Source: a virus. Taken from it: DNA of 51,574 bases. Numbering within the stretch: the stretch's first letter is position 1; each line of letters opens with the position of its first letter. Shown piece by piece: positions 25,670 to 51,574 of the stretch. The position numbers and the translations under genes are program-made. Location: the IMG/VR virus record IMGVR_UViG_3300012682_000002, positions 1-51,574 of that record; one strand, written 5' to 3'. The notes beneath the pieces were generated by a model. The model was given only the letters and a program-made list of their open reading frames with translations. It had not been told where the DNA came from and did not search any database.

Positions 25670-26614
25670 TTACCGCACCTCACTGAGCCGCCGCCGCGTT
25701 ACGACCGGCCCCCACTTCGTCTCTTCGATCTTCATGAACGCGGCAAGCGGCGCTCCGTCGCGGTACTTCGCCAGCGCCCCCGGCCCCAACACCGCCCGCT
25801 GGATGTTCTCCGGCTGCTCGCTGAACCACGCTTCGCCGTCTACACCTGCCGCGAGCAACTGAGGCGTCGCTACACATCGGCACCGAGGATGCGACGCCAT
25901 CACCGCATCCGAATCCTGCGCCTTGCCGTCGAGCGACACGCAGAGAATGCAGACTCGTCCGTCCCGCCGCGACCGCCGCACGAAGCGCGGCACGGCATCC
26001 CGGTTGGCCGCGTACGCCGCCGTCATCGCCGTCCGCCCGGCGCGCATCGTCTCCGTCGCCGCAATCGTTTCCAAGCGCGTCGCCGCCTGCTCGCTCGCTG
26101 TCTCCAAGACGCGCGCCGCGCTCAGTGCCGGCTGATCGCTCCGCAACGCCGCCGCTAGCGCCGTGCGCGTCCGCGTCACCGTGTCCCGCACCAGCGCACG
26201 CACCAGCGCCGGCAACGTCTTGCCCTGCACCGCCGCCAGTTGCGCGCGTACGTCCGCTACCGCCACCGGCTGCCAGGCAACACCGAGCGGCGCGGCCAAC
26301 ATGACGAGCCGGTGCGCCGCATCCAGCCCCGCGCCCACGGCCGCGCCCTGCGCCTGCATCAAGAGTGGCAGCACCATCGCCGCCGCATTGCCAACCACGC
26401 CGCCGAACGCTGCCGCCAGTACCCGACTCTCACGCGCCACGAACGCCGCCAACGCGCCGGGAGCAAGGGCGGCGAGCCGCATGGCGGCCGCACTTGCGTC
26501 AGCGGCTAAGCTCGGCAGCGCACGGGCGAGGTCGCCGAGCACAACGCGCATGATCGGGTCGGTGAGCGCATCAATCGCCAGGAGGAAGGCGCGCGTTTCG
26601 TCCGCGACGCTCAT
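25670..26614 (-). CDS. Head morphogenesis protein (SPP1 gp7 / Mu F-like)
   Basis: 314 aa. C-terminal DGRVCILCVSLDGK...HPRCRC is the signature of this family. Directly follows the portal gene. Confidence 0.8.
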   Translation of the reverse strand: MSVADETRAFLLAIDALTDPIMRVVLGDLARALPSLAADASAAAMRLAALAPGALAAFVARESRVLAAAFGGVVGNAAAMVLPLLMQAQGAAVGAGLDAAHRLVMLAAPLGVAWQPVAVADVRAQLAAVQGKTLPALVRALVRDTVTRTRTALAAALRSDQPALSAARVLETASEQAATRLETIAATETMRAGRTAMTAAYAANRDAVPRFVRRSRRDGRVCILCVSLDGKAQDSDAVMASHPRCRCVATPQLLAAGVDGEAWFSEQPENIQRAVLGPGALAKYRDGAPLAAFMKIEETKWGPVVTRRRLSEVR

Positions 26615-28143
26615 CCGCTTTGGTTCCCCGGCAAGAGCGCCGCCAGCCCGCGCAGCCGTCCGCCTTCCGCGTCGACCGCGCCGAGCGCCGCGTCACCAGG
26701 CGCCGCCGTGCCGTCCGCTTCCAGTTCCTCGCGCATCGCCGTGATCTGATCGGCCGTGAAGCCGCGCCGCCGCATCCGCTCCGGCCACGAAAGATCGTCC
26801 GCAGAAAGCGCCAGCTCTTGCTCCGTGGTCAGCGCCGAGCGGGTCTCGAACGGATGCCAGCGCGTCTCAATCGCCGCCGCCTTGTCGTACTGCGCGCCCG
26901 TGCCGAAGCGATTGCTCAGCCGGATCGCCAGCCGGCAGACATCCTCCCAGGCGTTCCCGAAAGTGACGGCGCGGTCGTCGACCTTCGCCACCAACCCCGA
27001 CTCGGCCGTCTTGAGCGCCTCGCCACTGGGCAAGCCGCCCTCCGGCCAGATCAGATGCAGCGGCACGCGCATCACGGCGGCAATCGTCTTCAGCTCGCGG
27101 TCGGCCGCGTCCTGGCAAGCGAGCACGTTGCCCGCCGTCAGTTGCCCGACGACGACGGGATTGGTCGGTATCATCGCCTTAAGCTGCCAGACGGCGCCCG
27201 GCGAGACGATCAACGCCTTCGGCTGGCGCGTCACCGGGTCTAGCGGCGTCTCGACATTGCTCACGTAGACCTGGCCCGCGCCCTGATAACTCATCGTCTC
27301 GGACGTGTACCAGATCCGCCGCGCATACTCGTCCTGGAGGGGGATCAAGTCGGAAAGTTCGCTATGCCCAAAGTCCGCGCCGCGCGGCCGGTTGCGGAAA
27401 GGCACGATCGGAATACCGAGCGGGCGGCCGTCCTCCGTGCGCCAGTCAATGACGCCACCATCGGGGTTGCCGTTGCTGTCGCGGTCATCGGTCCAGAGCT
27501 TCCACGCCGTCTCGTCCGGCTCTTGCGCGAACTTCTCGATCAACGCCGGCGTAAACTTGGTCAGCCGCCGTCGGTAGCGCACGATGCCACTGGAGTCGAT
27601 CTGCGGCTCCGCCCACGTCTTGTACGCCGCTGTCATCTGGTGGTAGCCGTCGTAAACGGGCATCATGGTGAGCGCATCGTGATAGGTGTACATGGGCAGG
27701 TTCGCGGCGGCATCGAAGCCGACGAGAACGTAGCTATCGCCCTTGACGAACGCCTGGCCGTGGACCGTGTTCTGGTGCTCATCCATGCGGCTATGCGCCC
27801 ACGCTTGGGCGAGCATCGTGTCGATGGCGGTATTCCCCGTCGCAAAGCCCGCCACGGCCATCCGCTCAATCAGCACGTCGATGCAAAGCGCACAGACGTT
27901 GTGCGTCGCGCCAAAGATGCGTTCGGCCCGCGTGCTCGCCTTGCGGTCGCCGAAGGTGATCAGGCGCGGATCGTCTTGGCGGCCGAGATAGTAATCCTCG
28001 TACAACTCGTAGGCCGCGTCGCGGTCATTGGCGATCCGTTCGGTGCGCGAGGCGTAGGCGATATCCACCGGACTGAGGCGCGCCGTATCCGAGCGTCCTA
28101 CCAGGCCGACGATGGCCGAACCAATCGTGTCGAGGAGGGTCAC
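26611..28143 (-). CDS. Portal protein
   Basis: 510 aa. Lies between TerL and the gp7-like gene, with ATGA-type overlaps. Confidence 0.8.
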   Translation of the reverse strand: MTLLDTIGSAIVGLVGRSDTARLSPVDIAYASRTERIANDRDAAYELYEDYYLGRQDDPRLITFGDRKASTRAERIFGATHNVCALCIDVLIERMAVAGFATGNTAIDTMLAQAWAHSRMDEHQNTVHGQAFVKGDSYVLVGFDAAANLPMYTYHDALTMMPVYDGYHQMTAAYKTWAEPQIDSSGIVRYRRRLTKFTPALIEKFAQEPDETAWKLWTDDRDSNGNPDGGVIDWRTEDGRPLGIPIVPFRNRPRGADFGHSELSDLIPLQDEYARRIWYTSETMSYQGAGQVYVSNVETPLDPVTRQPKALIVSPGAVWQLKAMIPTNPVVVGQLTAGNVLACQDAADRELKTIAAVMRVPLHLIWPEGGLPSGEALKTAESGLVAKVDDRAVTFGNAWEDVCRLAIRLSNRFGTGAQYDKAAAIETRWHPFETRSALTTEQELALSADDLSWPERMRRRGFTADQITAMREELEADGTAAPGDAALGAVDAEGGRLRGLAALLPGNQSG

Positions 28144-29366
28144 AGTTCACGCCCCCATCGATCAAACTGAAGGGAGGGGCCGCCGCCACTTGCCGCCGTG
28201 TCTGCCAGCGCCGCCGCGATCACGCAGTCGTCATGCATCCCCGGCGGCGCCCCATAGCGGACAAGGCCACTCGGCAGACGATCCATCTCGAACGCCTGCA
28301 ACTCAGCGATCAGATCGGTCCAGGTCGCAGGAAAGGTAGTTCGCCCGGTTTCGATGTTGAGCGCCAGCGTCTCGATCGCCGTCCCCTTCGTTGCGTTCGA
28401 GGTGGTGAAGCCATAGACCGGCACCCCCTCACGCTGCAACTCCTCGATGTTGGGGTCGCCGATGCTATTGCGCTCGGCGACGACCGTGGTGATCCCCCAC
28501 TTGGCAACCATCGCCTTAACCCGATCGCGCTGAATTTTCCAATCGATCTGGTTGAAGCGGTCCATATCGACGTACGCGCCGCTCACCACGTCCTTGACCA
28601 CCATAACGGTAAAGTCGTAACTCTTGCCCCAATCCAGACCGGCGACGTAGGTGCGCGGCAGCTTCGGCGGGTTCGGATCGGCCGTCGCCGCCGCCATCAC
28701 CCGGCGGAAGACGCCATTGCCGTCCTCCAGAAACTGCGCCATCACCTCTTGGGTGAAGGTCCGTTCGGGCATCTCCCGCCGCATCGCGTCGATCTCATCC
28801 ACGGCAATGAAGGGGTTCGCGTACGTCGGCATCTGCCATGACGCCCAATCGGGTTGCGCTTCATCCTGACCGCGCTGATAGAGATGCCAGAAGTAGTTAC
28901 GCCCCTTCGGCGTGCTCAAGAACCAGGCATCGCCGCGGTAATCCGCGAGCGTCGGTCGGATCACCGCCTGCCACGCTTCCTCAAGCTGACGAACCATCGC
29001 CGCCTCGTCAATGACCACCCGCGCGTACTTGCGGCCGCGCGGCGCATTCACCGAATCAAGCGACCACATATCGACGACGCCCCCCGTCACCAGTTCCACG
29101 CGGTGCTGCTGAGTATCGACGCGCGCCGTCACCGGCAAGAGGATAGCGCGGAGATCGCGCCATACTTCCGTCAGCATCGGATAGGAAGGGCTGAACCACG
29201 CGACCGGCTTACCAGCAAGCGCGGGGTGCACAATGCGTTCGATACCGAGCAAGGTTTTGCCGAACCGCCGGCCACAGCAGACGACGTTATAGCGTGCCGC
29301 TTCTCGGATCACTCGCGTCTGGGACTCGTGAGGCTGAAGCAAACGGATTGATAACGTCGTTGTCAT
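28140..29366 (-). CDS. terL: Terminase large subunit
   Basis: 408 aa. Walker A CCGRRFGKT and Walker B VVIDEAA, with a C-terminal nuclease-like half. Lies upstream of the portal gene. Confidence 0.85.
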   Translation of the reverse strand: MTTTLSIRLLQPHESQTRVIREAARYNVVCCGRRFGKTLLGIERIVHPALAGKPVAWFSPSYPMLTEVWRDLRAILLPVTARVDTQQHRVELVTGGVVDMWSLDSVNAPRGRKYARVVIDEAAMVRQLEEAWQAVIRPTLADYRGDAWFLSTPKGRNYFWHLYQRGQDEAQPDWASWQMPTYANPFIAVDEIDAMRREMPERTFTQEVMAQFLEDGNGVFRRVMAAATADPNPPKLPRTYVAGLDWGKSYDFTVMVVKDVVSGAYVDMDRFNQIDWKIQRDRVKAMVAKWGITTVVAERNSIGDPNIEELQREGVPVYGFTTSNATKGTAIETLALNIETGRTTFPATWTDLIAELQAFEMDRLPSGLVRYGAPPGMHDDCVIAAALADTAASGGGPSLQFDRWGREL

Positions 29367-29709
29367 AGATCACGCGGACGGTGATATCACCGCCGTCCTT
29401 GCCGAGCATTTCCGTTACACGCTTTCCGTACTCATGCGGGTAGCGCCGTTCGAGTTTCCAGGCCGCCGCGGTCCATTCGCCATTAGTAGCGGCCTGCTCA
29501 ATCTTGGCGAGCCAGCCGATCGCGGCGCGGCCCTCGGCTTCTTTTATGGCGTCCGCGAAATCCGTGTCCGCTTTCATCCAGACGGCGAAAGCGTCCTCAC
29601 TCAAACCGCCGTACAGACACGCGAGACGGCGCGTCGAGCCGAGCGCCAGCGCCTGTACAAGCTTCGCGCGCTTCTCAGGCGTGCGAACAGTTGGCCGACC
29701 TGCCATCAT
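29287..29709 (-). CDS. terS: Terminase small subunit
   Basis: 140 aa. N-terminal HTH-like GRPTVRTPEKRAKLVQALALGSTRRLACLYGGLSEDAF and WKLERRYPHEYG. Overlaps terL by 80 nt. Confidence 0.7.
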   Translation of the reverse strand: MMAGRPTVRTPEKRAKLVQALALGSTRRLACLYGGLSEDAFAVWMKADTDFADAIKEAEGRAAIGWLAKIEQAATNGEWTAAAWKLERRYPHEYGKRVTEMLGKDGGDITVRVIYDNDVINPFASASRVPDASDPRSGTL

Positions 29710-29719
29710 TCACCGCCGT

Positions 29720-30028
29720 TCATCGCGCGGCACCCACGTGCCTTAACGTCATACCGTACTCATCCGCGCCGGGCGAGATCGCAAGACCGGCACGTCTCCG
29801 CAGCATGTTCTTGCGGAAACGGCGATAATCGACATGATGATGCCAGCGGCCGAACCTCCAGACGAGGCGCGAAACATCGGGGTGCAACGCCACCTGCATC
29901 TGTGACTTCGCTAGCGTGCCCTCATGAGTGTAAAAGGCGTCGGTGTTGCCGCCACGGAACGCTTGCGTCGTCGTCTTGTCTTGAAGGAACGCGTTGAACT
30001 CAATCGTGCACCAACCGGCCTTGAGCAT
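29720..30028 (-). CDS. GT-A glycosyltransferase-like protein, C-terminal fragment (frame continues upstream to the G8 tract)
   Basis: This frame is open from 30187 and reads ...RGRYNEDTDLSLRMLKAGWCTIEF..., an ED-x-DL-x-LR motif typical of GT-A enzymes. Confidence 0.5.
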   Translation of the reverse strand: MLKAGWCTIEFNAFLQDKTTTQAFRGGNTDAFYTHEGTLAKSQMQVALHPDVSRLVWRFGRWHHHVDYRRFRKNMLRRRAGLAISPGADEYGMTLRHVGAAR

Positions 30029-30167
30029 CCGTAGGGAAAGATCGGTGTCCTCGTTGTACCGGCCGCGCCAGCGGAACGGAACGTCGTTGCGAATCAGGTT
30101 ACAGGAGTAGATTCGAGTGTTGAGGGTGAAGGGCGCGGGATCGGCACGGTGAATGGGGGCGAAGCGT

Positions 30168-30632
30168 TCATAGCACGGCCCCCCCCATCGTCACATTCTC
30201 ATAGCGGGCGCAGAAATCCTCCATACACCGGAACCCGGCGCCATCAAGGATTTGTACCTTTGCGTTACGGTGCCAACGGTAGAATCGCCGAATATTGTCA
30301 TCCATCACCCAATGCCAGGTAGCCCCGGCGGCGACGGCGTGATCCCAAACGAAGTTCCGCGCCGGCCCTGGCCCCATGCTCTTGCGGTCGCCGTGGTCAT
30401 CGCACGGATCGTATGTGCGTTGATAGGCCGGATCAAGGATGAGGATCTTTGTCGGCGCGATCACGGCGGCGTAGGCGTCATACTCTGCCGCCTCGATCAC
30501 AATTCGGTATTCGACACCCATCCGTTCGAGCGCCTTGCTCGTGAGGCGCGTATCGGCGCGACCTTTCGAGACGATGTAGATCGGGTGCTCAGGATGCACT
30601 ATAGGCCAACTCGGTATGTGCTCCCCGGTCAC
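30168..30632 (-). CDS. GT-A glycosyltransferase-like protein, N-terminal fragment ending just after a G8 tract
   Basis: ORF 30168-30716. IYIVSKGR and HWVMDDN (DxD-like). Start is uncertain (GTG 30632 or 30599; ATG 30716 would overlap the ParB-like gene by 128 nt). Stop lies 9 nt past C8 at 30179-30186. Confidence 0.5.
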   Translation of the reverse strand: MTGEHIPSWPIVHPEHPIYIVSKGRADTRLTSKALERMGVEYRIVIEAAEYDAYAAVIAPTKILILDPAYQRTYDPCDDHGDRKSMGPGPARNFVWDHAVAAGATWHWVMDDNIRRFYRWHRNAKVQILDGAGFRCMEDFCARYENVTMGGAVL

Positions 30633-31224
30633 GCGGCGGAAACCAGAGGCTTTTGGTTTCCGCCGTGATCTGTTGCCCAATGCACGCGGAAAAGGCATCC
30701 ACCGCCGCCGCGTCAAGGAATGAGATGGTAATCTGCCGCGCCGCGAGTTGAGGATTTACAAACTCCGGCATCCCGGCCCACTCCAATGCGAGATCCGAGC
30801 CATTCGCAGCCGGCGGAACAACCCCGGAACGCTCAGCCACGTCGACGAGTAAAGCCTGTAGCGCCTCACTCCCCGGATCGACATCACGCAGGAGCGCATC
30901 AAGGTCCGCCGCGTTCGCCGTCGCCATCGCCCCAATCGGATCGTAGGTCGCAAGAATCAAGTCAGCCTCACGCTCGTCTACATCAAGGATCAGGACCGGC
31001 ACCTCTTGATCCGACGTCAACTCGGCGCGCAAATGCCCGTCGATCAACATCAATCCAGCATCGGTCTGCCGCGCGAGGAGCGCACCGGCATAGCCGATCT
31101 CGGCGAGGAGGCCGCGCATCGCATCGCGTTGAGGCTTCGGATGCTTGCGCCAGTTCTTCGGCGACGGCGCGAGATCGCGGGCAGAAACACGGCGAAGCTC
31201 AACGATCCGATCACGCACATTCAT
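30589..31224 (-). CDS. ParB/Srx N-terminal-domain protein
   Basis: ORF 30589-31662 trimmed to ATG 31224, which follows GGAGG. LAPSPKNWRKHP and LMLIDGHLRAEL. The tail ...TKSLWFPP resembles the linker of ParB-methylase fusions. Confidence 0.7.
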   Translation of the reverse strand: MNVRDRIVELRRVSARDLAPSPKNWRKHPKPQRDAMRGLLAEIGYAGALLARQTDAGLMLIDGHLRAELTSDQEVPVLILDVDEREADLILATYDPIGAMATANAADLDALLRDVDPGSEALQALLVDVAERSGVVPPAANGSDLALEWAGMPEFVNPQLAARQITISFLDAAAVDAFSACIGQQITAETKSLWFPPRDRGAHTELAYSAS

Positions 31225-31517: not shown

Positions 31518-32048
31518 CTAGATCGCCATCCGTGCTTTGCGGTTGCGGTAGTAGGCCGGGTAGAGGTGGGCGGCAATGCGCGCCACGCCCCATCGCTTCC
31601 AGGCGGCGACGGACCCCTCGTGCGCGGTGCAGTACGTCCGGCCACTCATATCCGTGCGCCATTCACAACTGAGCGCGGGGCAGATACGCATCCGCGCCGC
31701 AATCTCGGCGTTGTTGTAGCCACCGTAATAATGCAGCGCCACGGCGATGCGCTCGTTCCGTGGCAGTCGCGCCGCCTGCCACCAGATGTCCATTTGCCAG
31801 CAGGTGCGGTCGGGGATGCCGAGCCAGGAGCGTCCCTTACCGCGTGGTCTGCTCGACAGCTTCACCTGTGAGAGCGAGCGCCGCGACTTCAGACCCGCTT
31901 TGATCGCGTCCTCCGGTGTGCCGATACGCGGCGCAGGATAGGGATCGTGGTAGTAGAACGGGACATGATCGCGGACCGAATCAACAGACACGGTTGACCT
32001 CCTCACCACATACAGGCACACGCGCCGCGCCGGGTCGGGCGTGGTCAT
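31518..32048 (-). CDS. Sigma-70 region-4-like / LuxR-type HTH DNA-binding protein
   Basis: 176 aa. LPRNERIAVALHYYGGYNNAEIAARM resembles sigma region 4. Confidence 0.5.
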   Translation of the reverse strand: MTTPDPARRVCLYVVRRSTVSVDSVRDHVPFYYHDPYPAPRIGTPEDAIKAGLKSRRSLSQVKLSSRPRGKGRSWLGIPDRTCWQMDIWWQAARLPRNERIAVALHYYGGYNNAEIAARMRICPALSCEWRTDMSGRTYCTAHEGSVAAWKRWGVARIAAHLYPAYYRNRKARMAI

Positions 32049-32446
32049 GGCTGGCTCCTCTCGCCGCTAATCTCCGCCCGCCCCGCCAGCAGCGCGCGGG
32101 CATCGTTGCGAAACCCCATAAAGTCCTCATAGGCGTACCGCTCGGCGATTACCATGCTGCTATCATCCCGGAACGCCGCCAGCCGCTTCACCAGCGCGAG
32201 CAGTGCGTCGCCGCCGACCGCGACGCCCCCCACGTGACGATCAGCTTCTTCCGACGACGCATTCATCCACTGCCCGGTTTCGAGTACATAGCGCTGCCAC
32301 GCGTCCTCGCCGCACACGACACACTCCCGGATAAAAAGGACTCCGTGGACAAGACCGATACCCTCGCTTTTCGCCCAGCTCGTCCTGACGGCAAGGCCCT
32401 CAGCAGCGAAGCGGCACACATGAGGCGCGGGGTTTGGGGTGATCAT
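32045..32446 (-). CDS. Hypothetical protein (paralogue of 32443-32898)
   Basis: 133 aa. Shares DALLALVKRLAA and a C-terminal ...ERSQP, plus about 20 nt of identical DNA at its 3' end, with its neighbour. Confidence 0.55.
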   Translation of the reverse strand: MITPNPAPHVCRFAAEGLAVRTSWAKSEGIGLVHGVLFIRECVVCGEDAWQRYVLETGQWMNASSEEADRHVGGVAVGGDALLALVKRLAAFRDDSSMVIAERYAYEDFMGFRNDARALLAGRAEISGERSQP

Positions 32447-32898
32447 GGCTGGCTCCTCTCGCTATCGATCCCTTTTCGCTCCGCCAGCAGCGCGTGGGCG
32501 TCAACCCAAAGGCAGTGCTTGTCGTGATCGAATGATCGCTCGTGATAGGCGCTGTACGCGCCGCACGAGTCGCACCAGACGCGCCCCTCCCGAATAGCGG
32601 TCGATTCCACTGCCGCCAGCCGACGTACCAGCGCGAGCAGGGCGTCGCGGTCCTCCTGCAGCGCCGCGAGCTCGGCCTGCTGGCGGTCGATGATGGCGAG
32701 CAGCGCGTCGGTATCCTCGACGATATTGCCGACCACCTCCGTACGCCCTTCATGGCCGAAGCACTGGATCGCAATGCGCCCAAGTTGGTCCCGCACCGTC
32801 GCGTCGTTGTTGCCGCGACCGACCGGCACGAGGTCGCGCATATGGCCCAGCCGCTCCCGAATCGCCGCCACCTGCTGCCGCTCGTCGTCAGTCATCAC
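32443..32898 (-). CDS. Hypothetical protein (paralogue of 32045-32446), Cys/His cluster
   Basis: 151 aa. DALLALVRRLAA, WCDSCGAYSAYHERSFDHDKHC and C-terminal ERSQP. Confidence 0.55.
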   Translation of the reverse strand: MMTDDERQQVAAIRERLGHMRDLVPVGRGNNDATVRDQLGRIAIQCFGHEGRTEVVGNIVEDTDALLAIIDRQQAELAALQEDRDALLALVRRLAAVESTAIREGRVWCDSCGAYSAYHERSFDHDKHCLWVDAHALLAERKGIDSERSQP

Positions 32899-32958: not shown

Positions 32959-34971
32959 TCACAGCGCCATCACCTGCTGGCTCAACCTGCCCTCGGCCAG
33001 CCGGCAATACTCTTCCTCTTGTTCGATGCCAATCGAACGGAAGCCGAGCGCGCGGGCAGCGATCAGCGTCGTGCCGCTGCCGGCGAAGGGGTCGATCACC
33101 GTGCCGCCCGGTTGGGTGATCATGGTGATCAAATAACGAAGTAGCTCCTGTGGCTTGACGGTTGGGTGATGGTTGCGTGCGCCACCCGTCCGCCCGGAGC
33201 CAGCGCGCGGCGAGTTGAGGCCGGCGCTGCCGTCCGTGCGGTCGGTCGCCTCGCCGCCGCTCTTGGCGGGGAGGGCGTCGAGGCCGTAGTCGCGTTCGGC
33301 GCGCGACGGCTTGGCGATGAAGAAAAATCTAGATGCAGTACCAGTGTCGCCATACGAGGGTAGTGTGCCTTGTGCGCCTAGTGGCCTGTATCGTCCATTA
33401 CGGCCACCCGCGCCCCGCCCCACTGTTTGCGGAGTCGTGCTCACCCCCGACTGCCGATCCAACTCTCCCGTTGGACATCCCTCCGCGTGGGGTTCGTCGC
33501 CGCAACAGGTAAAGACGGTGTTGGCGGGCCAGCGGCCAAGCTCGGTAACGCCAATCGCGCGTCTGCCTCCTGATCCCGATCCGTAAATCGCGCCCGTTTT
33601 CCCTGTGCCTTCTTGCAACTGGCGTAGTCCTTTCACCTCAATCCGACATTTATCAATATTGATCCCCCCCGTCCCCCACTTGGCGACGTTCGCGGCGATG
33701 GTGCCGTCGAGGGGCGCGCGGGCTAAAATGATTGGCTCCCAGTTAGATCGTTGATCGTGCGTGTTCTGTCCGGTAGTCGGCGTAGCATCGGCGAGAGCAG
33801 AAGATGCCCCCGCCGGGGCGCCGAAACACTCCGCCACAATGTTTGCAAGTACCGACGCCACCACGCGCGCGATGGGTCCGATAGCATCGTCGAGAACAGA
33901 ATGCCTCAGGGTGCCTAGCCAGTTCACCCACTCGCCGCTCGAACTGTTCTCCGCACTCCGAACATGGGACGCTTTGCCAGCGTGAAGGCACCTGTACACG
34001 GGCATGGTGTTGGGCGATATGAGCGGCGCGAGTAGTGAGTTCAAGGTTCTCAAGCCGGTTGTCATGTTTGACGCCGTTGATGTGGTGGACATTATCGTCG
34101 AATCCGAGAGGCCGTCCAAGATGTTGCTCCATGATGAAGCGATGCTCAAGGACGTTAAGACCACCTCCGGTAAGCTGGACGTATCCGTCTCTCCGTACTT
34201 TTCGCGTAATGCATTCATCGCGGCAGCGGCGAGAACAGAACCGCACGTAGCCTCGTTTCGCTCGGCTAGGCTTAACGGTAAACTCCACGGTGCAGGCAGA
34301 GCAGACGAAGCGAACCGCCATAGCAGCCCCCCCAAAGCATGATGAAGATACCGGACAAGCACACCATCAAATGGTACCACATTCAAAGGTTTCTGAGCCC
34401 ATAGGACTGGCTCCCAGCTGGGTTTTAACGCAGTCCCCCAGCCTTCCCATTGGCGGGCGAGGTCGGTGACTGGGGCGGTTACTTCACACTCGCGTTCTCC
34501 GTCGCCGTTGCCACCAATACCATCGCCATATAACCCGCCCTTGCCCATCGTCAAGCTATAGCCGGGTTGTCCCGCCTTACTGCCCACGATAGGCCGCTCT
34601 GCCCCCGCCGCCTGATCGATCGCCTTACTCACATCTAACGATTTCGGAAAACCTTGCGCGTGCATCCACGCCGCGATGCTATCTCGAATTTCGAAGCCCG
34701 CGTCCTCAATCGCCACGGCCATCCGGTGATACGTGCGTGCGCCACCAAAGGCGAGTAGATGCGCCCCCGGCTTGAGCACGCGTAGCACCTCGCGCCAGAA
34801 CGACGGATCGAAGGCGATGCCGGTGCCGTCCCACTTTTTTGACATGAATGAAAGCTCGTACGGCGGATCAGTAACACACGCATCCACCGACGCCGCCTCC
34901 ATGCCGGCCAACACGGCGCGGCTATCGCCGCAGAACAGCGTCACGCCCCCGCGCTCGAAATACGGTGTCAT
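32959..34971 (-). CDS. Beta-class DNA amino-methyltransferase (N6-adenine or N4-cytosine), interrupted by an HNH-ORF insertion
   Basis: ORF 32959-35034 with a likely ATG at 34971 after GGGGGAG. DPPY near the N-terminus. [16 protein letters not shown] and FAGSGTT near the C-terminus. The middle 675 nt is foreign. Confidence 0.8.
33743..34321 (-). CDS. HNH homing endonuclease
   Basis: 192 aa. [37 protein letters not shown] plus flanking CxxC pairs. Lower GC than its surroundings. Lies in a different frame from the host methyltransferase. Confidence 0.85.
33743..34417 (-). mobile_element. HNH-endonuclease insertion element inside the methyltransferase gene
   Basis: Bounded by the 10-nt direct repeat CTGGGAGCCA (34408-34417 and 33733-33742). 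Carries a diverged second copy of the WEPxxxAxxPL coding segment. Confidence 0.65.
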
Positions 34972-34994
34972 CGCTCCCCCTTCAGCCAGCTCTA

Positions 34995-35690
34995 TCACCC
35001 CGTCACCTCCACTGGTGGCGGGATCGCATGCCAATCAAGCGACGGCCACCGACAAAGCCGCGCGAGATCGCGCCGCTGACGGCGATCTCCAGTCACCGTC
35101 CAATACTTCACCTTTGGCGCACGTCGAACACGCCGGACATACTGCGCCGCGCCCCCTCGGAACGCCTCGCGAGTATGTTTACCAGGCACGATGTAGTCAT
35201 ACCGCGGCGTCTTCCGTTCCATGTCCGTCCATCCGGCATAGTGAAAGTTCGCCGCTCGGTAGACGTAGCCAACGTGTCCTCGCAAGGTGTCCGCGTAACT
35301 CACAATAATGCGCGGCGGGACGCGCCGGAGCGCGTGAGCAATAAACCACGTTTCACTATTGCGAGGCATCGAATCATGCACCCAAAGCCGATTAAGCTCG
35401 ATCACGATGTCCGGATTCGTCGGACACATACCGATCTGCAAATGGCGGCTAGCAGGGATTCCGAGCGTCAAGACGCCGACCACGCCCTCGGCACCAACAA
35501 GACCGAACGCATACTGCATGGGTGGTCTGCGGTGAAGGTAGTGGTAAGTAACGACGAGCGATGCCGCCTGCCGGTGATCGAGCGGTACCACCACCAAATC
35601 TGGTAGGCCCACCATTGCGTCCATGATGTCCCTCGAAAGCCAGTCTTCAAGCCGAATCTGTACCGCTTGCTTCTCGATCATAGCGATCAT
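34995..35690 (-). CDS. Mom-like GNAT-fold DNA-modification acyltransferase
   Basis: ORF 34995-35747 with a likely ATG at 35690. TYHYLHRRPP, IELNRLWV and IVSYADTLRGHVGYVYRAANFHYAG parallel phage Mu Mom (WHYS.., LELKRL, SFSDPEHGHNGGIYKAANF), recalled from memory. Confidence 0.6.
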   Translation of the reverse strand: MIAMIEKQAVQIRLEDWLSRDIMDAMVGLPDLVVVPLDHRQAASLVVTYHYLHRRPPMQYAFGLVGAEGVVGVLTLGIPASRHLQIGMCPTNPDIVIELNRLWVHDSMPRNSETWFIAHALRRVPPRIIVSYADTLRGHVGYVYRAANFHYAGWTDMERKTPRYDYIVPGKHTREAFRGGAAQYVRRVRRAPKVKYWTVTGDRRQRRDLARLCRWPSLDWHAIPPPVEVTG

Positions 35691-35762
35691 GTCTCTACCC
35701 CCTCTGCCTGCTGCCCGCATCCATCCCCGCCAGCACGTCGAGCACATGGCCGACCTTGATCG

Positions 35763-36071
35763 TCATCGCCGCTCCCCCTTCAGCGCCGCCTCAATCGCGT
35801 CCCAATCGCCCGGCCGCCGCACCGCCGCATCGATCCCCGGCACCGCGCCAAGCGCATCCAGCCAGGCGCGCTGGTCGGGCCGCAGCCGGCCGCGCATCGT
35901 CTTCAGCTCCCAGGCCAGGGCGCGGCCGTCGCGCACGGCGAAAATATCGGGGAAGCCAGCCGCCGTCGCGCGCCGTGAATCGGGGATGGAATAAACCAAC
36001 CACGAGTGAAGACGAGCGAACTCAATCACCGCCACCTGGAACGCTCGCTCGCTCAGCGCGCAATCGAGCAC
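35763..36071 (-). CDS. VRR-NUC domain nuclease
   Basis: ERAFQVAVIEFARLHSWLVYSIPDSR...GFPDIFAVRDGRALAWELK fits the PD-(D/E)xK VRR-NUC pattern. Start uncertain (GTG 36071; ORF-track ATG at 36215). Confidence 0.7.
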   Translation of the reverse strand: MLDCALSERAFQVAVIEFARLHSWLVYSIPDSRRATAAGFPDIFAVRDGRALAWELKTMRGRLRPDQRAWLDALGAVPGIDAAVRRPGDWDAIEAALKGERR

Positions 36072-36618
36072 GCTCCTCGCGTCGACAGGGCCGACAGTAG
36101 ACGACCCTGTTTGTCCCCTTTCGCCTGTAGGCGTTCTCTGCTGTCGCTGGGTGGCCACGTTTGCACACTCCTCTGCGCGCAAGCAGCACCATCGGCGCCA
36201 CGCCACGCCACACATTCACTCGATGGGGCACAGGTTCGAGATGATCCGGGTTGCAACACATCCGATTTCGGCAGAGATGGTCGAGTTCCATGCCTTCGGG
36301 GATTGGTCCGCGCAAGAGGGTCCACGCAAACCGATGAGCCGTCGTAGAACCAACTCCCGCCCCCGCGTAAAACCCGCCGTAGCCGGTCCCGTACTTGCCG
36401 CCGGACCACTCCCAACAAGACTCAGTTATCCGCACCTTCGGCCAGAAGCGATCGCTTGGCGGGATCGGCGTGATGACAGGATGTGTGCCACGTCCATTGT
36501 GGCCGTGGATGAATCGAGGCTGCCGCCGAGCACGGATCGGCACGCGACCACCGCACCCGCAGGCACACAACGAGATGTCTTCGGGCATGGGAAAGCCGCC
36601 TCCGCAGATCGCACTCAT
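36022..36618 (-). CDS. HNH endonuclease
   Basis: ORF 36022-36717 trimmed to ATG 36618 (ATGA overlap). CWEWSG..GYGGF..AHRFAW..LDHLCRNRMCCNPDHLEPV. Confidence 0.85.
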   Translation of the reverse strand: MSAICGGGFPMPEDISLCACGCGGRVPIRARRQPRFIHGHNGRGTHPVITPIPPSDRFWPKVRITESCWEWSGGKYGTGYGGFYAGAGVGSTTAHRFAWTLLRGPIPEGMELDHLCRNRMCCNPDHLEPVPHRVNVWRGVAPMVLLARRGVCKRGHPATAENAYRRKGTNRVVYCRPCRREERARLRAERASVPGGGD

Positions 36619-36806
36619 CCCCTCCCCCTCCCCCACGCCTGTCGCGCCGCGGCCTCGCTGGCGTAGAACGTGACGCCCGCCATCGATTCCCAGATCGCGT
36701 ACGGCTGAGCCACGCAAACGGCGCAGCGGGTGAGCGTGCGGTCGCCGATCGGACGGGCGCCGGGGCGGGTCGCCAGCACGGTGCGGGGGTGGGTGGCGGC
36801 GGTCAT
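36615..36806 (-). CDS. Hypothetical protein
   Basis: ORF 36615-36881 trimmed to ATG 36806 (ATGA overlap). 63 aa. Confidence 0.45.
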   Translation of the reverse strand: MTAATHPRTVLATRPGARPIGDRTLTRCAVCVAQPYAIWESMAGVTFYASEAAARQAWGRGRG

Positions 36807-37881: not shown

Positions 37882-38393
37882 CACGAAAGCTTTCCCTGAT
37901 CGACGGCATCGCGGATGGTGCTTTCGGACGGCATGGTTCGAAACGCGGACTTCACCGGCCGGCGGAACCCGTCCGACCACTCCTGATACCGGCGCTGGGA
38001 CTTGAAGAGGTTTTGCTTTCGCACCTCATCCATCATGTCGAGCCGAGGATCGTCAACCTGGCCCACGCTCGAAACCATCCCCTCGCCGATCGGCACAACG
38101 GCGTCGAGGATGCCCAACTCTTCGAACGCCGCTTGCCCGCTGGCAAGCTTCTCCATCTGGCGCTTGCCATCCGCAACTACGCGCGCATGGGCATGCCGCA
38201 TCGCCGTCTCTGCCGCCGCTTCTTCGAGCGTCGTTTGTGCGTATGTCGACGCGCGTATCTCCTTCATCACCGCGTCGCGCGCGGCTCGCATCGCCGACGC
38301 TTCATCGGCAACGTTGCCGGCCGCCTCTAAGCGGGCGATCTCCGCGCGATACGCCGTTTCCGCGGTGCTATTCCACTCGTTCATCGGGTCCAC
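37881..38393 (-). CDS. Hypothetical protein
   Basis: 170-aa helical ORF. Confidence 0.5.
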   Translation of the reverse strand: MDPMNEWNSTAETAYRAEIARLEAAGNVADEASAMRAARDAVMKEIRASTYAQTTLEEAAAETAMRHAHARVVADGKRQMEKLASGQAAFEELGILDAVVPIGEGMVSSVGQVDDPRLDMMDEVRKQNLFKSQRRYQEWSDGFRRPVKSAFRTMPSESTIRDAVDQGKLS

Positions 38394-39187
38394 TCCTTCG
38401 CGAGACTACCCAGGTTCTCCGCCGCTTCGTTCAACAACGCTGCCGTGAGCGGCTCATCCAGGAAACTACGGTCATCCGAGAACAGGGCGATCGCCCGCTC
38501 CCGTCGCGGCGCATCGGCGAGCAGATCGAGCGCCACCTTCACCGAGCGACTAAGCCGATCGCTGATGATGGTGATGTCTTCGTTCCGCCTGCGCGTCCGT
38601 TCGCCGAGTTCGGCCAACGCACCGACAAGCGTCAGTCGCTCCTCGACCACTTGATCGGCGAGGTCGGGCGCCTCGGCGCGAAGGCGCGCCATCCGCGCGT
38701 CGGTTGACTCGGCGGCGATCTTGCGGGTGCGGGCTTCGGCGTAGGCGTCGCTGAGCGGCAGACTGCCGGCCATCACTGCATCGGTGAGGTCAGGGGCATA
38801 GGTGAGGACGGTGGATGCATGAACCACACGGGAGCGATTCATACCCGCTGTCTTCGCGGCTTCTGCCTGAGAGGTGTTATTTTTTAACACCACCTGCGCC
38901 ACCACCATCGCCAGTTGCCCCTTGCTCATGTGCCGCCGGTTGACGTTGGACGAGAGGATGTAGGCGACCGGATCGTGATCGCCCAACTGCTCGAACGCCG
39001 GCTCGACGCCGGCCAGTTCGCAGGCACGGAGACGGTTGCGCCCGTCGATCAACTGGCCGTCCGTGTCGATCACGATTGGGTGGATCAAGCCGTTCGCCTT
39101 GATGTCGTCCGCCAGGTCGTGCAGCTCTTCGTCAGGCACCATCGGAAACAATGCCGCCATTGGATGTACGCGATACTCGCTTGTCAT
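38381..39187 (-). CDS. ParB N-terminal-domain DNA-binding protein
   Basis: 268 aa. HPMAALFPMVPDEELHDLADDIKANGLIHPIVI..LIDGRNRLRAC, then an HTH-like segment. RBS AGGAAAGGGGAG. Confidence 0.75.
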   Translation of the reverse strand: MTSEYRVHPMAALFPMVPDEELHDLADDIKANGLIHPIVIDTDGQLIDGRNRLRACELAGVEPAFEQLGDHDPVAYILSSNVNRRHMSKGQLAMVVAQVVLKNNTSQAEAAKTAGMNRSRVVHASTVLTYAPDLTDAVMAGSLPLSDAYAEARTRKIAAESTDARMARLRAEAPDLADQVVEERLTLVGALAELGERTRRRNEDITIISDRLSRSVKVALDLLADAPRRERAIALFSDDRSFLDEPLTAALLNEAAENLGSLAKEWTR

Positions 39188-39306: not shown

Positions 39307-39466
39307 GAAGTACGTCGTGAGGTGGGTCGTCGCGGCGATTCGTCCGCCGCAACGTACTTCACGTACTTCACAAGCTTGTAAGTGAAGTACGTTATTTGAG
39401 GTCGATGGTTGGACTATTGCGTAACACATATTCTTGAAGTACGTGCTTGAAGTACGTGAAGTACGT
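39307..39466. promoter_or_regulatory. Iteron array: 7 copies of GAAGTACGT (candidate origin or parS-like site)
   Basis: Forward copies at 39307-15, 39384-92, 39436-44, 39449-57 and 39458-66. Reverse copies at 39352-60 and 39361-69. The region is AT-richer than the genome. Confidence 0.7.
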
Positions 39467-41367
39467 CAGGCATCATCCATCTCCCCTAGCCGTAGAAATG
39501 TGTACTTTCCGTCCTTCCGATCGACCTTGATCGCGCCGCTCTTCCGACCGGCGGTGATGCCGCGCTCGGCCGTTGTGCGCGGCAGTTGGTACTCCGCCAT
39601 CACCGCGTCCCGCAACTCCCCGTAGGTCATCACGCCGCGCTCGTCGAGCAGTTCGCAGGCGTGCATTAACGCTGCTGTCTCCGCTCCATAGGCTGCCGCT
39701 GTTGAGCCGATCACCGTCATCACCACCGGCTCGCCTTTGTTCGCATCTCCCTCCAACTTGTAGATTACATCGGGTGCCCTCATGCCGCCGCGTATCTTCT
39801 CGACATGGACACGCACGAGCGGATCGGTGCTGTTGCCTATCAGTTGCACATGGTTGTCGGCATTCGCCTTGAACTCGCCGCTGCCGCGCAAACGATTGCC
39901 CGGCGTTACCGTCCCTTCGCGTGGTGCTTTGTTGAGATGCTGGAGCATAATCCAGGTGACGCCCGTCTTAAGACGGATCGTACGTAGCATCTTGTGGAAG
40001 GCGGCAACGTCCCGCGAACTGTTCTCATCGCCGTCAAAGAAGCGGATCAGGCTGTCGGTGACGATCAGGTTGATGCCCCGCTCTTCGATCACGCGCGTTA
40101 GCCAGGCGGCATCCTGTGGCCGCGCGAGCCGTATCTCCGCGTCGATTACGAAGTCGACCGGGATGTCTTCATCGGCATCGATGCCCATGCCCTCGCAGAG
40201 CGCCCGTAGCCGCCGCTGCGCCTCTTGGATGCCGTTCTCCTCGTCGATGTAGAGGGCGCGGATAGGCGCCGTCTCACGGCCAAGGAACGGCATCCCACGG
40301 GCGGCATGGAGCACCAGCGCTAGCACCCACCAGGACTTGCCGAGGCCAGATTCTCCCGACAGGACGACGTAGCGGCCGCGCGGGATCGTGTCTGCTAGCA
40401 CCCATTCGATCGGCGGCAGGTCGAGGGCGCGCAGCTCGCGCGCCGTCCAGATCGTTCGGGCAGCGGTCGGCTCCGCCGCCGGCGCATCGTCGTCTTCGAG
40501 GAACGCTGTCGCTTCCCGTGTTGGTGCATACCGCCGATAGGCGCTGTTCAGGGCGGCGACGGCTTCCGATTCATCGAGCGGCGGCTTCGCGTTCGCTGCC
40601 GCCTCCCGGATCAGTCGCGCCGCCATCTCATAGGGCACGTCCGCGCCGCGCAGTTTGGCGGCGAGCCGGAAGACCTGATCGTTGCGCTGGCCCTCCGGCA
40701 CGCCGTCGAGGATGGCGCCGGTGTCGAGCCGCGAGAACGGTAATGGCTCTTTGGCTCCGTCCGTGCGCGGCAGCCAGGTGGGTACGTCCGCCAGCTCGCA
40801 CTCGTCCGGGCCATATCCGATCTCCCATGCGTAGCGCCGCCCCGAATGATGGCGCGAGGGCGGCGCGACGGCGTAGCCGCCCTCGCCGCGTACGTCCACG
40901 CCCGGCGCAATCTTGCCGGCGCTGTTGCCGATATAACCGCCGGGGTGACGGAGATAGGCATGCCAGCCGCCACCGCCGGTGAGGACGCGCCACGTCTCGG
41001 CGAGCGCGCCGTGCTCCGCCTCGAGGCGGTGGATCGACTCCTCGCCACCCTTGTCCGGGTCCACGTCGATCAGGGCCAGGCCGGAGACCGAGCCGGTGCG
41101 GATGCCGATATTCGCGCCCGGATAGGCGGACCACCACCGGCGGATCGTGGCCGTGTCCGCCGTGGCGTCGAGCACGCCGCGTGGCACGAGCGAGCCGACC
41201 GGATGCTTGGCGATCTGGGTGCAGGCGCCGTCGCCGCACTCGCATTCGCCGTCCGCGTTCGGCGCCCACACCGGGAAGACGCGTAGACCGAGCGCCGCAT
41301 AGCGCAGCGCCGCACTCCCCGTTTCGGATGGCTGGGTATCGTTCATAGGTCGGCTTGCCACAGACAC
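39466..41367 (-). CDS. Bifunctional primase-polymerase (PrimPol) fused to a RepA/DnaB-like P-loop helicase
   Basis: 633 aa. LRVFPVW..., IDVDPDKGG, GGGWHAYL and VDVRGEGGYAVAPPS form the PrimPol domain. GESGLGKSW is Walker A and LYIDEE is Walker B. Confidence 0.85.
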   Translation of the reverse strand: MSVASRPMNDTQPSETGSAALRYAALGLRVFPVWAPNADGECECGDGACTQIAKHPVGSLVPRGVLDATADTATIRRWWSAYPGANIGIRTGSVSGLALIDVDPDKGGEESIHRLEAEHGALAETWRVLTGGGGWHAYLRHPGGYIGNSAGKIAPGVDVRGEGGYAVAPPSRHHSGRRYAWEIGYGPDECELADVPTWLPRTDGAKEPLPFSRLDTGAILDGVPEGQRNDQVFRLAAKLRGADVPYEMAARLIREAAANAKPPLDESEAVAALNSAYRRYAPTREATAFLEDDDAPAAEPTAARTIWTARELRALDLPPIEWVLADTIPRGRYVVLSGESGLGKSWWVLALVLHAARGMPFLGRETAPIRALYIDEENGIQEAQRRLRALCEGMGIDADEDIPVDFVIDAEIRLARPQDAAWLTRVIEERGINLIVTDSLIRFFDGDENSSRDVAAFHKMLRTIRLKTGVTWIMLQHLNKAPREGTVTPGNRLRGSGEFKANADNHVQLIGNSTDPLVRVHVEKIRGGMRAPDVIYKLEGDANKGEPVVMTVIGSTAAAYGAETAALMHACELLDERGVMTYGELRDAVMAEYQLPRTTAERGITAGRKSGAIKVDRKDGKYTFLRLGEMDDA

Positions 41368-42338: not shown

Positions 42339-43625
42339 CTACGTCACTCCGTCTCCCTCCAATCGCCGCCAGAGCTCGCGGAAGGCGGTTGCTGCTTGGA
42401 GGGGAACGACGGCGTTGCCGAGGGCGCGGAGGCGGTCGGTACGGTGGCGCATGGCAAGGTCCAGTTCTGCGGAAAACCTTGGAGCCACTCCACGAAGCGG
42501 GGCGATAAGCGCGGGCGCGAAGTCGGGCCGTTCGGCGAGGATGGCGGCCCAGGCGTCGCGGTCGGCGGGGCCGGGTGGGAAGGGCACCGATCCCAGTTGT
42601 TTGCCTGAGGGCCGAGTTTCATACCGGCGCTGTTCAGGGATGTGCGACCCGACGCGGCGTCGTTCGCTATCGGCGTCGCCCACATCGTCCGCGTCTGCTG
42701 ATCCAGCCCCATCTCGTCCACTCGGTCCCCGCCCCGGCTGCGGAAGCTGTCGGTTGCCGGGGTCTGCCAGAGCATCGCGCTGTCCGAGAGATTCAGTTGC
42801 CGGTGATGCTTGCCCACCTGCTCGCCCCGACGCAGCGCATCCAGCTCCGCTTCCGAGCGACTCCTCGGCCCGTCGCCGCTCAGGGCGTCCGGCGTCGGCC
42901 ACATCGCCGTTACTGCGGTCAGCGTGTCCGCCACGCCCCTCGTCCGACGCGCTCCGCTGCTCTCCGCGTCCTCCGCACGCGCCGTCGGCCACCGCTGCGC
43001 TACCTGTCCCAGCAGTGGTTTCCGTTCCCCATCCGTTCCCGTCGTCGATCCCCACTGGCCTGCGTCCGGGGTCGGCCAGGTCGAGTCCGGACCGTCGCGC
43101 AAGGCAGAACCATCGCTCGCGCTGATGGGAGGCACCCACGTCCGACGCACGAAGACTGAACCATTCCGCATCCCACCCGCTTTCGGCCAATGCTCCGAGA
43201 ACAACGTCAAGGTTCGGTCGAACATAGATACCTGCAACGTTTTCCAAGAAGAGGTAGCGCGCTCCCACGTCGTTAGCAATGCGGAGGATGTCAAAGAAGA
43301 GGGCGGATCGGTTGGCGTGGATGCCGCCGCGCTTACCGGCGGTACTGAGGTCCTGGCAGGGGAAGCCTCCGGCCACGAGGTCAACCGGCCCGCCTCGATC
43401 AACGACAGCGCGGAGCACATCGCCTCGGAAGGTGGCGATGTCAGACCAGATAGGGCATGGAGATAAGGAGCCGTCCGCCATGCGCGCGACCAGGACCGCG
43501 ACGCTATAGGCTTCCCTCTCAATGAGAGCGATAGGCCGGCTGCCGGGAGCGGCGTGTTCGACGGCCAGTTCGAGACCGCCGATGCCGCTAAAGCAGCCGA
43601 GGTAACGGAGGGGACGGATATCCAC
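42339..43625 (-). CDS. DNA (cytosine-5)-methyltransferase (frame A; the middle motifs lie in a second frame)
   Basis: ORF 42339-43700 with a likely GTG at 43625 after GGAG. FSGIGG (motif I), GFPCQDLS (IV), FLENV (VI), SHQRERWF (VIII) and RLRALGNAVVP (X). Confidence 0.8.
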   Translation of the reverse strand: MDIRPLRYLGCFSGIGGLELAVEHAAPGSRPIALIEREAYSVAVLVARMADGSLSPCPIWSDIATFRGDVLRAVVDRGGPVDLVAGGFPCQDLSTAGKRGGIHANRSALFFDILRIANDVGARYLFLENVAGIYVRPNLDVVLGALAESGWDAEWFSLRASDVGASHQRERWFCLARRSGLDLADPGRRPVGIDDGNGWGTETTAGTGSAAVADGACGGRGEQRSASDEGRGGHADRSNGDVADAGRPERRRAEESLGSGAGCAASGRAGGQASPATESLGQRDALADPGNRQLPQPGRGPSGRDGAGSADADDVGDADSERRRVGSHIPEQRRYETRPSGKQLGSVPFPPGPADRDAWAAILAERPDFAPALIAPLRGVAPRFSAELDLAMRHRTDRLRALGNAVVPLQAATAFRELWRRLEGDGVT

Positions 43626-43706
43626 ATGTATCACTCCAAGAGAGAGGTGACGGGGCGAGGCTGACGGAGCCGGGGTAGTAGCCCCAGCCAGCCTCGCCAC
43701 CGCCGG

Positions 43707-44143: not shown

Positions 44144-44439
44144 GCCATCACCTCCTCATAGAGATCGGCGGTACTGAGCGCCGGCGTGGCCGTGCAGCTG
44201 CAGCCGTCGGCGTGCCACGCCTCTAGCTCCCGCACATCGGCGGCGCGCTCGGTCTCCGCTGCCTGGACATTGATCCAGTGCCGCTGGCGAGGCGAGAGTC
44301 GCATCGCCTCGGCACGCCGCAACGTCGCGTAGGCGAGCAGGGCGGCGCGGCGCTGGTCGATGGCGACAGATGCGGTGGGGGCGAGTTCGCGGGCGGTTTC
44401 GCCGCGGGGGTCGGTAACGGTGAAGCAGTGGAGGATCAT
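44140..44439 (-). CDS. Hypothetical protein
   Basis: ORF 44140-44778 trimmed to ATG 44439 (ATGA overlap with the upstream stop). 99 aa. Confidence 0.5.
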   Translation of the reverse strand: MILHCFTVTDPRGETARELAPTASVAIDQRRAALLAYATLRRAEAMRLSPRQRHWINVQAAETERAADVRELEAWHADGCSCTATPALSTADLYEEVMA

Positions 44440-51551: not shown

Positions 51552-51574
51552 CCGCTGAGGGGCAGCGCCAGCCC
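51452..51574. repeat. Terminal overlap, identical to 1-123
   Basis: Second copy of the 123-bp overlap. Confidence 0.9.

Follow-up and report, generated by a model that had tools for sequence, protein, structure and literature searches.

A glycosyltransferase gene divided by a G8 tract

The window analysed here is the whole 51,574-nucleotide (nt) stretch of IMG/VR virus record IMGVR_UViG_3300012682_000002. Between positions 29720 and 31224 its minus strand carries a ParB-like gene followed by a glycosyltransferase (GT) gene of the TET-Associated Glycosyltransferase (TAGT) family, and the reading frame of the second gene is broken at a run of eight G (G8). The stop and start codons of the two genes overlap, and the pair is a translationally coupled two-gene cassette. 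The 5' part of the TAGT gene (30168..30599, minus strand) has GTG 30599 as its most likely start codon and thereby shares 11 nt with the end of the ParB-like gene. It consists of 140 native codons, including R14 and the DxD-like pair D100-D101, followed by AVL and a stop; the frame ends ...YENVTMGGAVL* at TGA 30170-30168, 9 nt past the tract, and the product has 143 amino acids (aa). The G8 site (30179..30186, minus strand; C8 on the plus strand) lies in the coding-strand sequence GAG AAT GTG ACG ATG GGG GGG GCC GTG CTA TGA. The 3' part (29720..30178, minus strand) is in the +1 frame, which is open from the tract to TGA 29722-29720, reads GGPCYERF...HVGAAR, and encodes P141 to R292, including E183-D184. 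Removal of one G gives a 292-aa protein, and either G7 or G10 would restore the frame. These coordinates confirm the original prediction for this locus, according to which an open reading frame (ORF) stops 9 nt past the G8 and the break falls exactly at the homopolymer.

After removal of one G, the repaired protein matches Pfam family PF20691 (TET-Associated Glycosyltransferase; E=4.5e-40, 138.2 bits, cut-off 27.5). The match is unbroken from aa 6 to 213 (profile positions 2-202 of 205) and spans the break at aa 139-140. PHROG 842 matches aa 2-254. Public gene calls label both fragments PF20691, and the 143-aa 5' product carries this label in the ENA, Logan and JGI calls. Homologues are intact single ORFs of ~290 aa that align over their full length to the repaired protein. 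Searching by tblastn gave 24 phage records, including Aeromonas T4-like, Vibrio, and Tenacibaculum phages, with a single full-length segment at ~50% identity. A large protein collection contains more than 8000 relatives; the best is 74% identical, and sizes among the 120 matches listed are 287-340 aa. AlphaFold2 (AF2) modelling of the repaired protein from a 50-sequence alignment produced a single compact domain (predicted local distance difference test score [pLDDT] 91.8, predicted template modelling score [pTM] 0.91). Because the PF20691 match is unbroken, the homologues are intact at full length, and the model is one folded domain, 29720-30599 (minus strand) is one TAGT-family (PF20691) GT-A glycosyltransferase gene. 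The two ORFs had been proposed to be halves of one GT-A transferase, and the match across the break, the intact DD and ED motifs, and the single-domain model bear this out. A fused protein of ~300-330 aa had been expected; it is a single protein, but its size is 292 aa. Profile searching of the fused translation had been suggested, with TET-associated families included; a Pfam match places both halves in one family, PF20691.

The closest PDB structures to the TAGT model are all GT-A enzymes (LARGE1, ColGalT1, GnT-I, and ppGalNAc-T), with template modelling (TM) scores of 0.4-0.5. In the viral structure library BFVD, the best matches are TAGT-domain proteins (TM 0.85-0.87). R...DD...ED motifs have been reported for phage GT-A DNA glycosyltransferases (bioRxiv 10.1101/2023.12.21.572611), and R14, D100, D101, E183, and D184 are invariant in the family alignment and present in the window protein. 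By analogy, the intact enzyme probably transfers a sugar from a nucleoside diphosphate (NDP)-sugar, with DNA as its putative substrate. In the window no intact ORF spans the two halves, and the 143-aa product is without the ED half.

The G8 is the only homopolymer of at least 8 nt in the window; three 7-mers and ten 6-mers come next in length. One G8 was observed where dinucleotide shuffles predict 2.7, and the run by itself is unremarkable in a 65% GC sequence. Among the 14 runs of at least 6 nt, the G8 alone stands at a frame break; reading continues in frame through all three G7 runs and all ten 6-mers elsewhere in the genome. The frame of homology to intact relatives changes within these 8 nt of an 880-nt gene. 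Because only one of 14 runs stands at a frame break and the homology switches frame inside that run, the coincidence of tract and break exceeds chance.

Origin of the frameshift

Homopolymers are the commonest sites of indel errors, and a sequencing or assembly error was among the explanations first offered for the break. On this explanation TAGT would be intact, with G7 in the actual genome, and the gene is indeed flawless otherwise. It was not borne out, in that the same G8 stands in three assemblies. ENA contig k141_704950 (ERZ27252406) and the Logan contigs of SRR6263248 contain G8 and match the window at 100% identity over 6.4 and 3.9 kb, respectively; tract length across the JGI, ENA, and Logan assemblies has a single value, and the gene calls of all three list fragments of 143 and 102 aa. 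Because the three assemblies agree on G8, an assembler artefact is excluded. The "k141" naming suggests that the ENA contig was made with MEGAHIT from short reads, and 8-mer consensus errors are uncommon in short-read data. A single read set probably underlies all three assemblies, which favours a base-calling error common to them. Given the agreement of three assemblers (JGI, MEGAHIT, and Logan), the rarity of such errors in short reads, and the 13 other runs of 6-7 nt without frame damage, we regard a base-calling error as unlikely.

Comparison with related genomes is informative about the history of the tract. The homologous 30 nt were extracted from 92 related loci. Most of these relatives encode M-A-G-P at the site (ATG GCx GGx CCx), the longest G run being 4, and a G tract at this site was found in none of the 92. 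Compared with ATG GCG GGG CCG in two relatives (L005 and L089), the window carries GG in place of C; judged from the alignment, this is an Ala139Gly substitution giving G7, plus one added G. Ala139 is a position conserved at 90% or more in the family alignment. Because the relatives have no tract, conservation for phase variation or for recoding is not supported, and the suggestion of slipped-strand phase variation or programmed +1 slippage, for which a comparison of the tract in related genomes had been recommended, failed on this comparison. Viral, genome, and metagenome contig collections were scanned for near-identical copies with an exact pattern in which the length of the G run could vary; there were 0 matches. 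A search for close relatives based on the large terminase (TerL) found none in genome contigs and only a 42% match in viral contigs, so the tract is not comparable in sister genomes. Two relatives have long G runs elsewhere in their loci, a G8 (L028, 3083-3090) and a G9 (L022, 2062-2070); neither is within TAGT, and the G8 run sits within the intact ParB-like gene of L028.

The sequence past the break shows no decay. In the 50-sequence alignment, all 68 invariant columns are kept in the window protein, 40 of them downstream of the break. At the 127 columns conserved at 90% or more in 49 intact homologues, the window protein deviates at two (L69H and A139G) and at none after the break, and intact homologues deviate at 2.5 +/- 2.2 of these columns. 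The frameshift is therefore very recent, or reversible or heterogeneous in the population, or bypassed in expression, or not real.

An evolved phase-variable switch would fit the reversible case. The tract would be a contingency locus, with glycosylation ON at G7 or G10 and OFF at G8 or G9, and the population would hedge evasion of restriction against evasion of defences that target glycosyl-DNA. A DNA-modification gene with a G8 in its coding sequence has the classic arrangement of poly-G contingency loci, and the downstream frame is fully kept. Of the four runs of at least 7 nt, three fall within DNA-modification genes (the G8 in TAGT and a pair of G7 runs in an N6/N4 methylase gene), but this enrichment argument is post hoc and was formed after the data were seen. 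Type IV and glycosylase defences against glucosylated DNA do exist (PMC13216743). None of the 92 relatives has the tract at this site, however, and no near-identical genome was found to show length variation; the tract originated with a substitution at a 90%-conserved Ala, and G runs this long are expected from composition. On balance, an evolved switch seems improbable.

Bypass in expression would require recoding: either the ribosome would slip by +1 while tRNA-Gly decodes GGG GGG G, or the polymerase would slip on the G/C run during transcription, and full-length TAGT would result. Any +1 slip inside the run gives exactly the conserved ...MGGPCYERF... product, and the downstream frame is intact. 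Against this, the site is conserved in no homologue, the other family members are simple uninterrupted ORFs, and a stimulatory element is not evident: the next codons in the 0 frame are the common GCC, then GUG and CUA, with the stop 9 nt on. Recoding is thus very unlikely.

We consider it probable that the break is a genuine and very recent +1 slippage mutation, incidental in nature and not an evolved switch, which leaves TAGT OFF. The Ala139 codon would have changed from GCG to GGG in this lineage, creating a G7 run (ATG GGG GGG), and slipped-strand mispairing would then have added one G to give G8. The dominant genotype in the sample would yield a 143-aa stub with the nucleotide-sugar half and the DD motif, lacking the ED-motif/acceptor half, and this truncated product is presumably inactive. 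Reversion could occur by a slip from G8 to G7. As a mechanism the frameshift is ordinary. Several points weigh against a recent incidental mutation. If the assemblies go back to one read set, as is probable, all of them could have inherited a systematic error in base calling at the G8. Function might persist through a minority of G7 genomes, in which case mutation and switch would be hard to tell apart, and the flawless conservation downstream fits equally well with expression by low-level slippage. In a complete and apparently replicating phage, one would not quite expect a dead gene that is otherwise undamaged. In addition, the window genome is without a visible hydroxymethyl-pyrimidine pathway for the usual acceptor of such an enzyme.

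The ParB-like partner and its adaptor domain

The ParB-like gene (30589..31224, minus strand) encodes 211 aa, with a ParB-CTPase/Srx-fold N-domain (aa ~1-135/140) and a small C-terminal TAGT-partner domain. The protein has no Pfam match; ParB_N scores below threshold on it, although ParB_N matches its orthologues. PHROG families 498 and 620 (ParB and ParB-methylase) match aa 9-126. The AF2 model (pLDDT 89) retrieved ParB-CDP 6sdk (E=1.5e-7), 7bnk, Noc, KorB, and sulfiredoxin in Foldseek, and the motifs NWRxHP and DGHxR (D62-G63-H64-x-R66; DGHLR here) are invariant in 30 homologues. On this modelled structure, the N-domain has the ParB-CTPase/Srx fold, and the PHROG and Foldseek matches agree with the earlier assignment of the neighbour as ParB/Srx-like.

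Searching with the ParB-like protein by phmmer recovered 7204 relatives in two classes. The first class has ~210 aa and matches over the whole length. In the second class the match is limited to aa 1-140, with 58-64% identity, and five of ten long members scanned (431-497 aa) are ParB-N6_N4-methylase fusions. The C-terminal linker (ITISF...TKSLWFPP) had been tied to such ParB-methylase fusions and the transferase interpreted as a swapped effector. The identity of the N-domains supports one ParB module with another effector, but the linker is not a ParB-methylase feature; it occurs in none of the long ParB-methylase representatives and is a separate domain of ~70 aa that travels with TAGT.

This TAGT-partner, or "adaptor", domain (30625..30792, minus strand; aa ~145-200) has the motif EW.GMPEF...I.F.....F....IGQ.IT..TKS.WFP. 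Neither Pfam-A nor PHROGs has a matching family, and a word-indexed search with the 74-aa C-terminal domain gave no match, so a local hidden Markov model (HMM) and phmmer were used instead. In 91 of 95 loci, the local HMM found the domain (E-values 1e-20 to 1e-35) either immediately before TAGT or in fusion with it; this count is partly circular because the HMM was built from ORFs upstream of TAGT, i.e., with seeds picked by position. A contig end truncates the TAGT locus in three of the four misses, and the fourth (L095) is the ParB-only control locus of Stenotrophomonas phage Suso, which has no TAGT. The Suso "DNA methylase" was considered as an adaptor carrier and rejected, as it contains only the ParB N-domain. 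Scanning with the same HMM found no adaptor domain in the ParB-N6_N4-methylase representatives.

Adaptor domains occur in three forms: at the C-terminus of ParB_N proteins of ~200-240 aa, as stand-alone proteins of ~80 aa, and as N-terminal fusions to TAGT. The fusions, in Aeromonas phage Aeh1 (Aeh1p093) and Vibrio phage 1.076.O, were both outside the HMM seed. These independent fused forms, together with E-values of 1e-20 to 1e-35, argue for real adaptor homology despite the seeding by position. Thus, the adaptor appears to be a constant partner of this TAGT clade, and it is apparently undescribed. In Vibrio phage 1.076.O, the fusion gene (L094, 4674-5843) lies between portal and head-morphogenesis genes, inside the head-assembly module. 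One further protein, P0270 (453 aa), combines a ParB N-domain, the adaptor domain, and an FkbM-type methyltransferase; the adaptor can accompany a different transferase.

Genome setting, proposed function, and known systems

The window has an exact 123-bp terminal direct repeat (1-123 and 51452-51574), and ENA contig k141_704950 (51,456 bp) is circularly permuted relative to it. These two observations identify the window as a complete genome of ~51.45 kb that assembles as a circle, as opposed to a decaying prophage embedded in host sequence. The phage looks viable and temperate. The cassette stands at the head of the packaging operon. The terminase small subunit gene (29287..29709, minus strand; PHROG 4102) starts 10 nt after the TAGT stop and is followed by TerL (28140-29366, minus strand; 408 aa here, with a 390-aa start in public gene calls) and then the portal gene (26611-28143, minus strand). 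Other genes encode an integrase (48219-49223, plus strand), a primase-helicase (39466-41367, minus strand), and an HNH endonuclease (36022-36717, minus strand), and there are helix-turn-helix regulators, a PD-(D/E)XK nuclease, a VRR-NUC protein, and a tail and lysis region.

The genome is rich in DNA-modification genes. Its C5-cytosine DNA methylase (42339-43700, minus strand; PF00145) matches only over aa 36-207; the C-terminal ~240 aa are rich in Gly, Ala, Arg, and Asp and unmatched. A Mom-family protein (34995-35747, minus strand; PF25680, E=7e-31), belonging to the family of the phage Mu adenine-modification enzyme, adjoins an N6_N4 DNA methylase of 691 aa (32959-35034, minus strand). In this methylase the DPPY half and the C-terminal motif-I half are split by a Ser/Thr/Leu-rich insert of ~300-350 aa. 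The GC content of its gene is below that of the rest of the genome, and its two in-frame G7 runs (33664-33670 and 34327-34333) show no sign of a frame error. A compensating double frameshift between these runs, which would have pointed to error-prone sequence, was rejected, as codon-position GC shows no frame switch.

TET/JBP enzymes, thymidylate-synthase-like or dCMP/dUMP hydroxymethylases, alpha-GT, and beta-GT gave no Pfam, PHROG, or NCBIfam match among the ORFs scanned, which comprised the non-structural ORFs and a sample of structural ones; most other structural ORFs were not scanned, and very divergent enzymes are possible. The remaining unannotated non-structural ORFs are all <180 aa, and a hidden TET/JBP was sought among them and not found. 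Four further features were noted. A second, unrelated ParB-like gene (38381-39187, minus strand; TIGR00180/Noc-like, PHROG 21315) lies in the replication/recombination region. Two small adjacent ORFs (32045-32446 and 32443-32898, minus strand; 133 and 151 aa) look like tandem paralogues, sharing ...ALLALV(K/R)RLAA... and a C-terminal ...SERSQP, and have no family match. A 442-aa ORF (44436-45764, minus strand) matches PHROG transposase families in its C-terminal part and has N-terminal proline-rich repeats of ~40 aa (...SPPxEPGA...LP.G..P.LGHTQTAAT...). Finally, in the related phage contig L089 (14264-16723), an 819-aa head-region protein has an odd combination of matches to LigT/2'-5' RNA ligase, uracil-DNA glycosylase (PF03167), and prohead protease (Peptidase_S78_2).

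The order ParB-like gene, TAGT, terminase is kept in unrelated phages with different terminase and portal families. A C5-methylase is linked to the cassette in 1 of 96 loci, and no TET/JBP was found within 10 kb on either side of the cassette in the Pfam-annotated contexts of seven distinct relatives. The original prediction regarded the locus as a DNA-modification module, possibly for base glycosylation. Base glycosylation is still plausible; an acceptor pathway did not emerge, as the ORFs scanned include no TET/JBP or hydroxymethylase. If the ParB-dependent thymine dioxygenases of phages are a guide, the ParB-like protein would load or activate TAGT on DNA, the presumed substrate, through the adaptor domain. 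The linkage of ParB, adaptor, and TAGT is supported by the fusion of the adaptor to TAGT in Aeh1 and Vibrio phage 1.076.O. Taken further, the cassette might be a self-contained glycosylation module that works without TET/JBP or a hydroxymethylase, in which a ParB NTP-gated clamp would load TAGT via the adaptor at packaging, the acceptor would differ from the known hydroxymethyl-pyrimidines (for instance, an unmodified or methylated base, or else a packaging protein), and the G tract would be a reversible ON/OFF switch. We offer this extended proposal as speculation that is quite unlikely to be correct as a whole.

The frameshift itself adds little, being a one-base slippage in a non-essential phage gene; its value is in the cassette to which it pointed. 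In published surveys, ~65% of phage GT contigs were put aside, no base-modifying neighbour having been seen. Many phages carry an unexplained "solitary" TAGT (288 of 753; PMC13216743), and ParB-like activators have been shown only recently, for phage thymine dioxygenases (PMC13229309). The clade of "solitary" TAGTs is very large (>8000 matches) and is nearly always accompanied by the adaptor, which in unrelated phages stands where the packaging operon begins. The ParB-adaptor-TAGT cassette is therefore a modestly novel lead, and the pair is a small, tractable system for asking what solitary TAGTs glycosylate and whether ParB-type loaders are general for DNA-modifying enzymes.

The founding member of PF20691 is the T2/T6 beta-glucosyl-HMC-alpha-glucosyltransferase, which adds a second glucose to glucosyl-hydroxymethylcytosine (hmC) from the dCMP-hydroxymethylase/alpha-GT pathway (PMC13216743). 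It shares family, GT-A fold, and phage origin with the window TAGT, but it is a remote relative, ~16% identical and without a tblastn match even at E<=1. The T-even-type enzyme of Klebsiella phage PKO111 aligns to the window TAGT model with TM ~0.6 (E=8e-10, 16% identity). Unlike the T-even phages, the window genome is one in which no hydroxymethylase, alpha-GT, or beta-GT was found (a "solitary TAGT"), and its gene is frameshifted and has a ParB/adaptor partner.

Poly-G/C contingency loci occur in phase-variable modification genes of Haemophilus, Neisseria, and Campylobacter. Like them, the window has a homopolymer of eight G in a DNA-modification ORF, with a frame toggled by one base. Unlike them, its tract is present in no relative and no length polymorphism was observed, and it looks incidental.

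ParB-fold fusions to DNA methylases are frequent in phages (Kaljevic et al. 2025, PMC12704722). In the ParB-N6_N4 methyltransferase fusions, the N-terminal ParB domain is 58-64% identical to that of the window protein, and a location near the terminase is typical. The window differs in that its effector is a separate TAGT gene with an adaptor domain, which the fusions do not have.

Phage GT-A DNA glycosyltransferases associated with 5mYOX (TET) enzymes (Burke 2021, PMC8256090; Pyle et al., bioRxiv 10.1101/2023.12.21.572611) share the GT-A fold and the R...DD...ED motifs with the window TAGT. ParB-like and terminase genes were noted among their neighbours, and the window has both, plus a C5-methylase. 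In contrast to these systems, TET/JBP was not found among the window ORFs scanned or in the flanks of seven relatives, and the C5-methylase link is limited to 1 of 96 loci.

To act on double-stranded DNA, phage thymine dioxygenases (5mYOX enzymes) need a ParB-like protein in which no DNA-binding domain is obvious (O'Toole et al. 2026, PMC13229309). The partner enzyme in those systems is a dioxygenase, whereas in the window it is a glycosyltransferase, for which dependence on the ParB-like protein is proposed by analogy. The C-terminal module also differs: the O'Toole ParB-like protein has a dimerisation domain, and the window protein has a TAGT-specific domain that also occurs alone or fused to TAGT. 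The setting is shared: in both, the genes for a ParB-CTPase-fold protein and a DNA-modifying enzyme are neighbours and lie close to terminase and GT genes.

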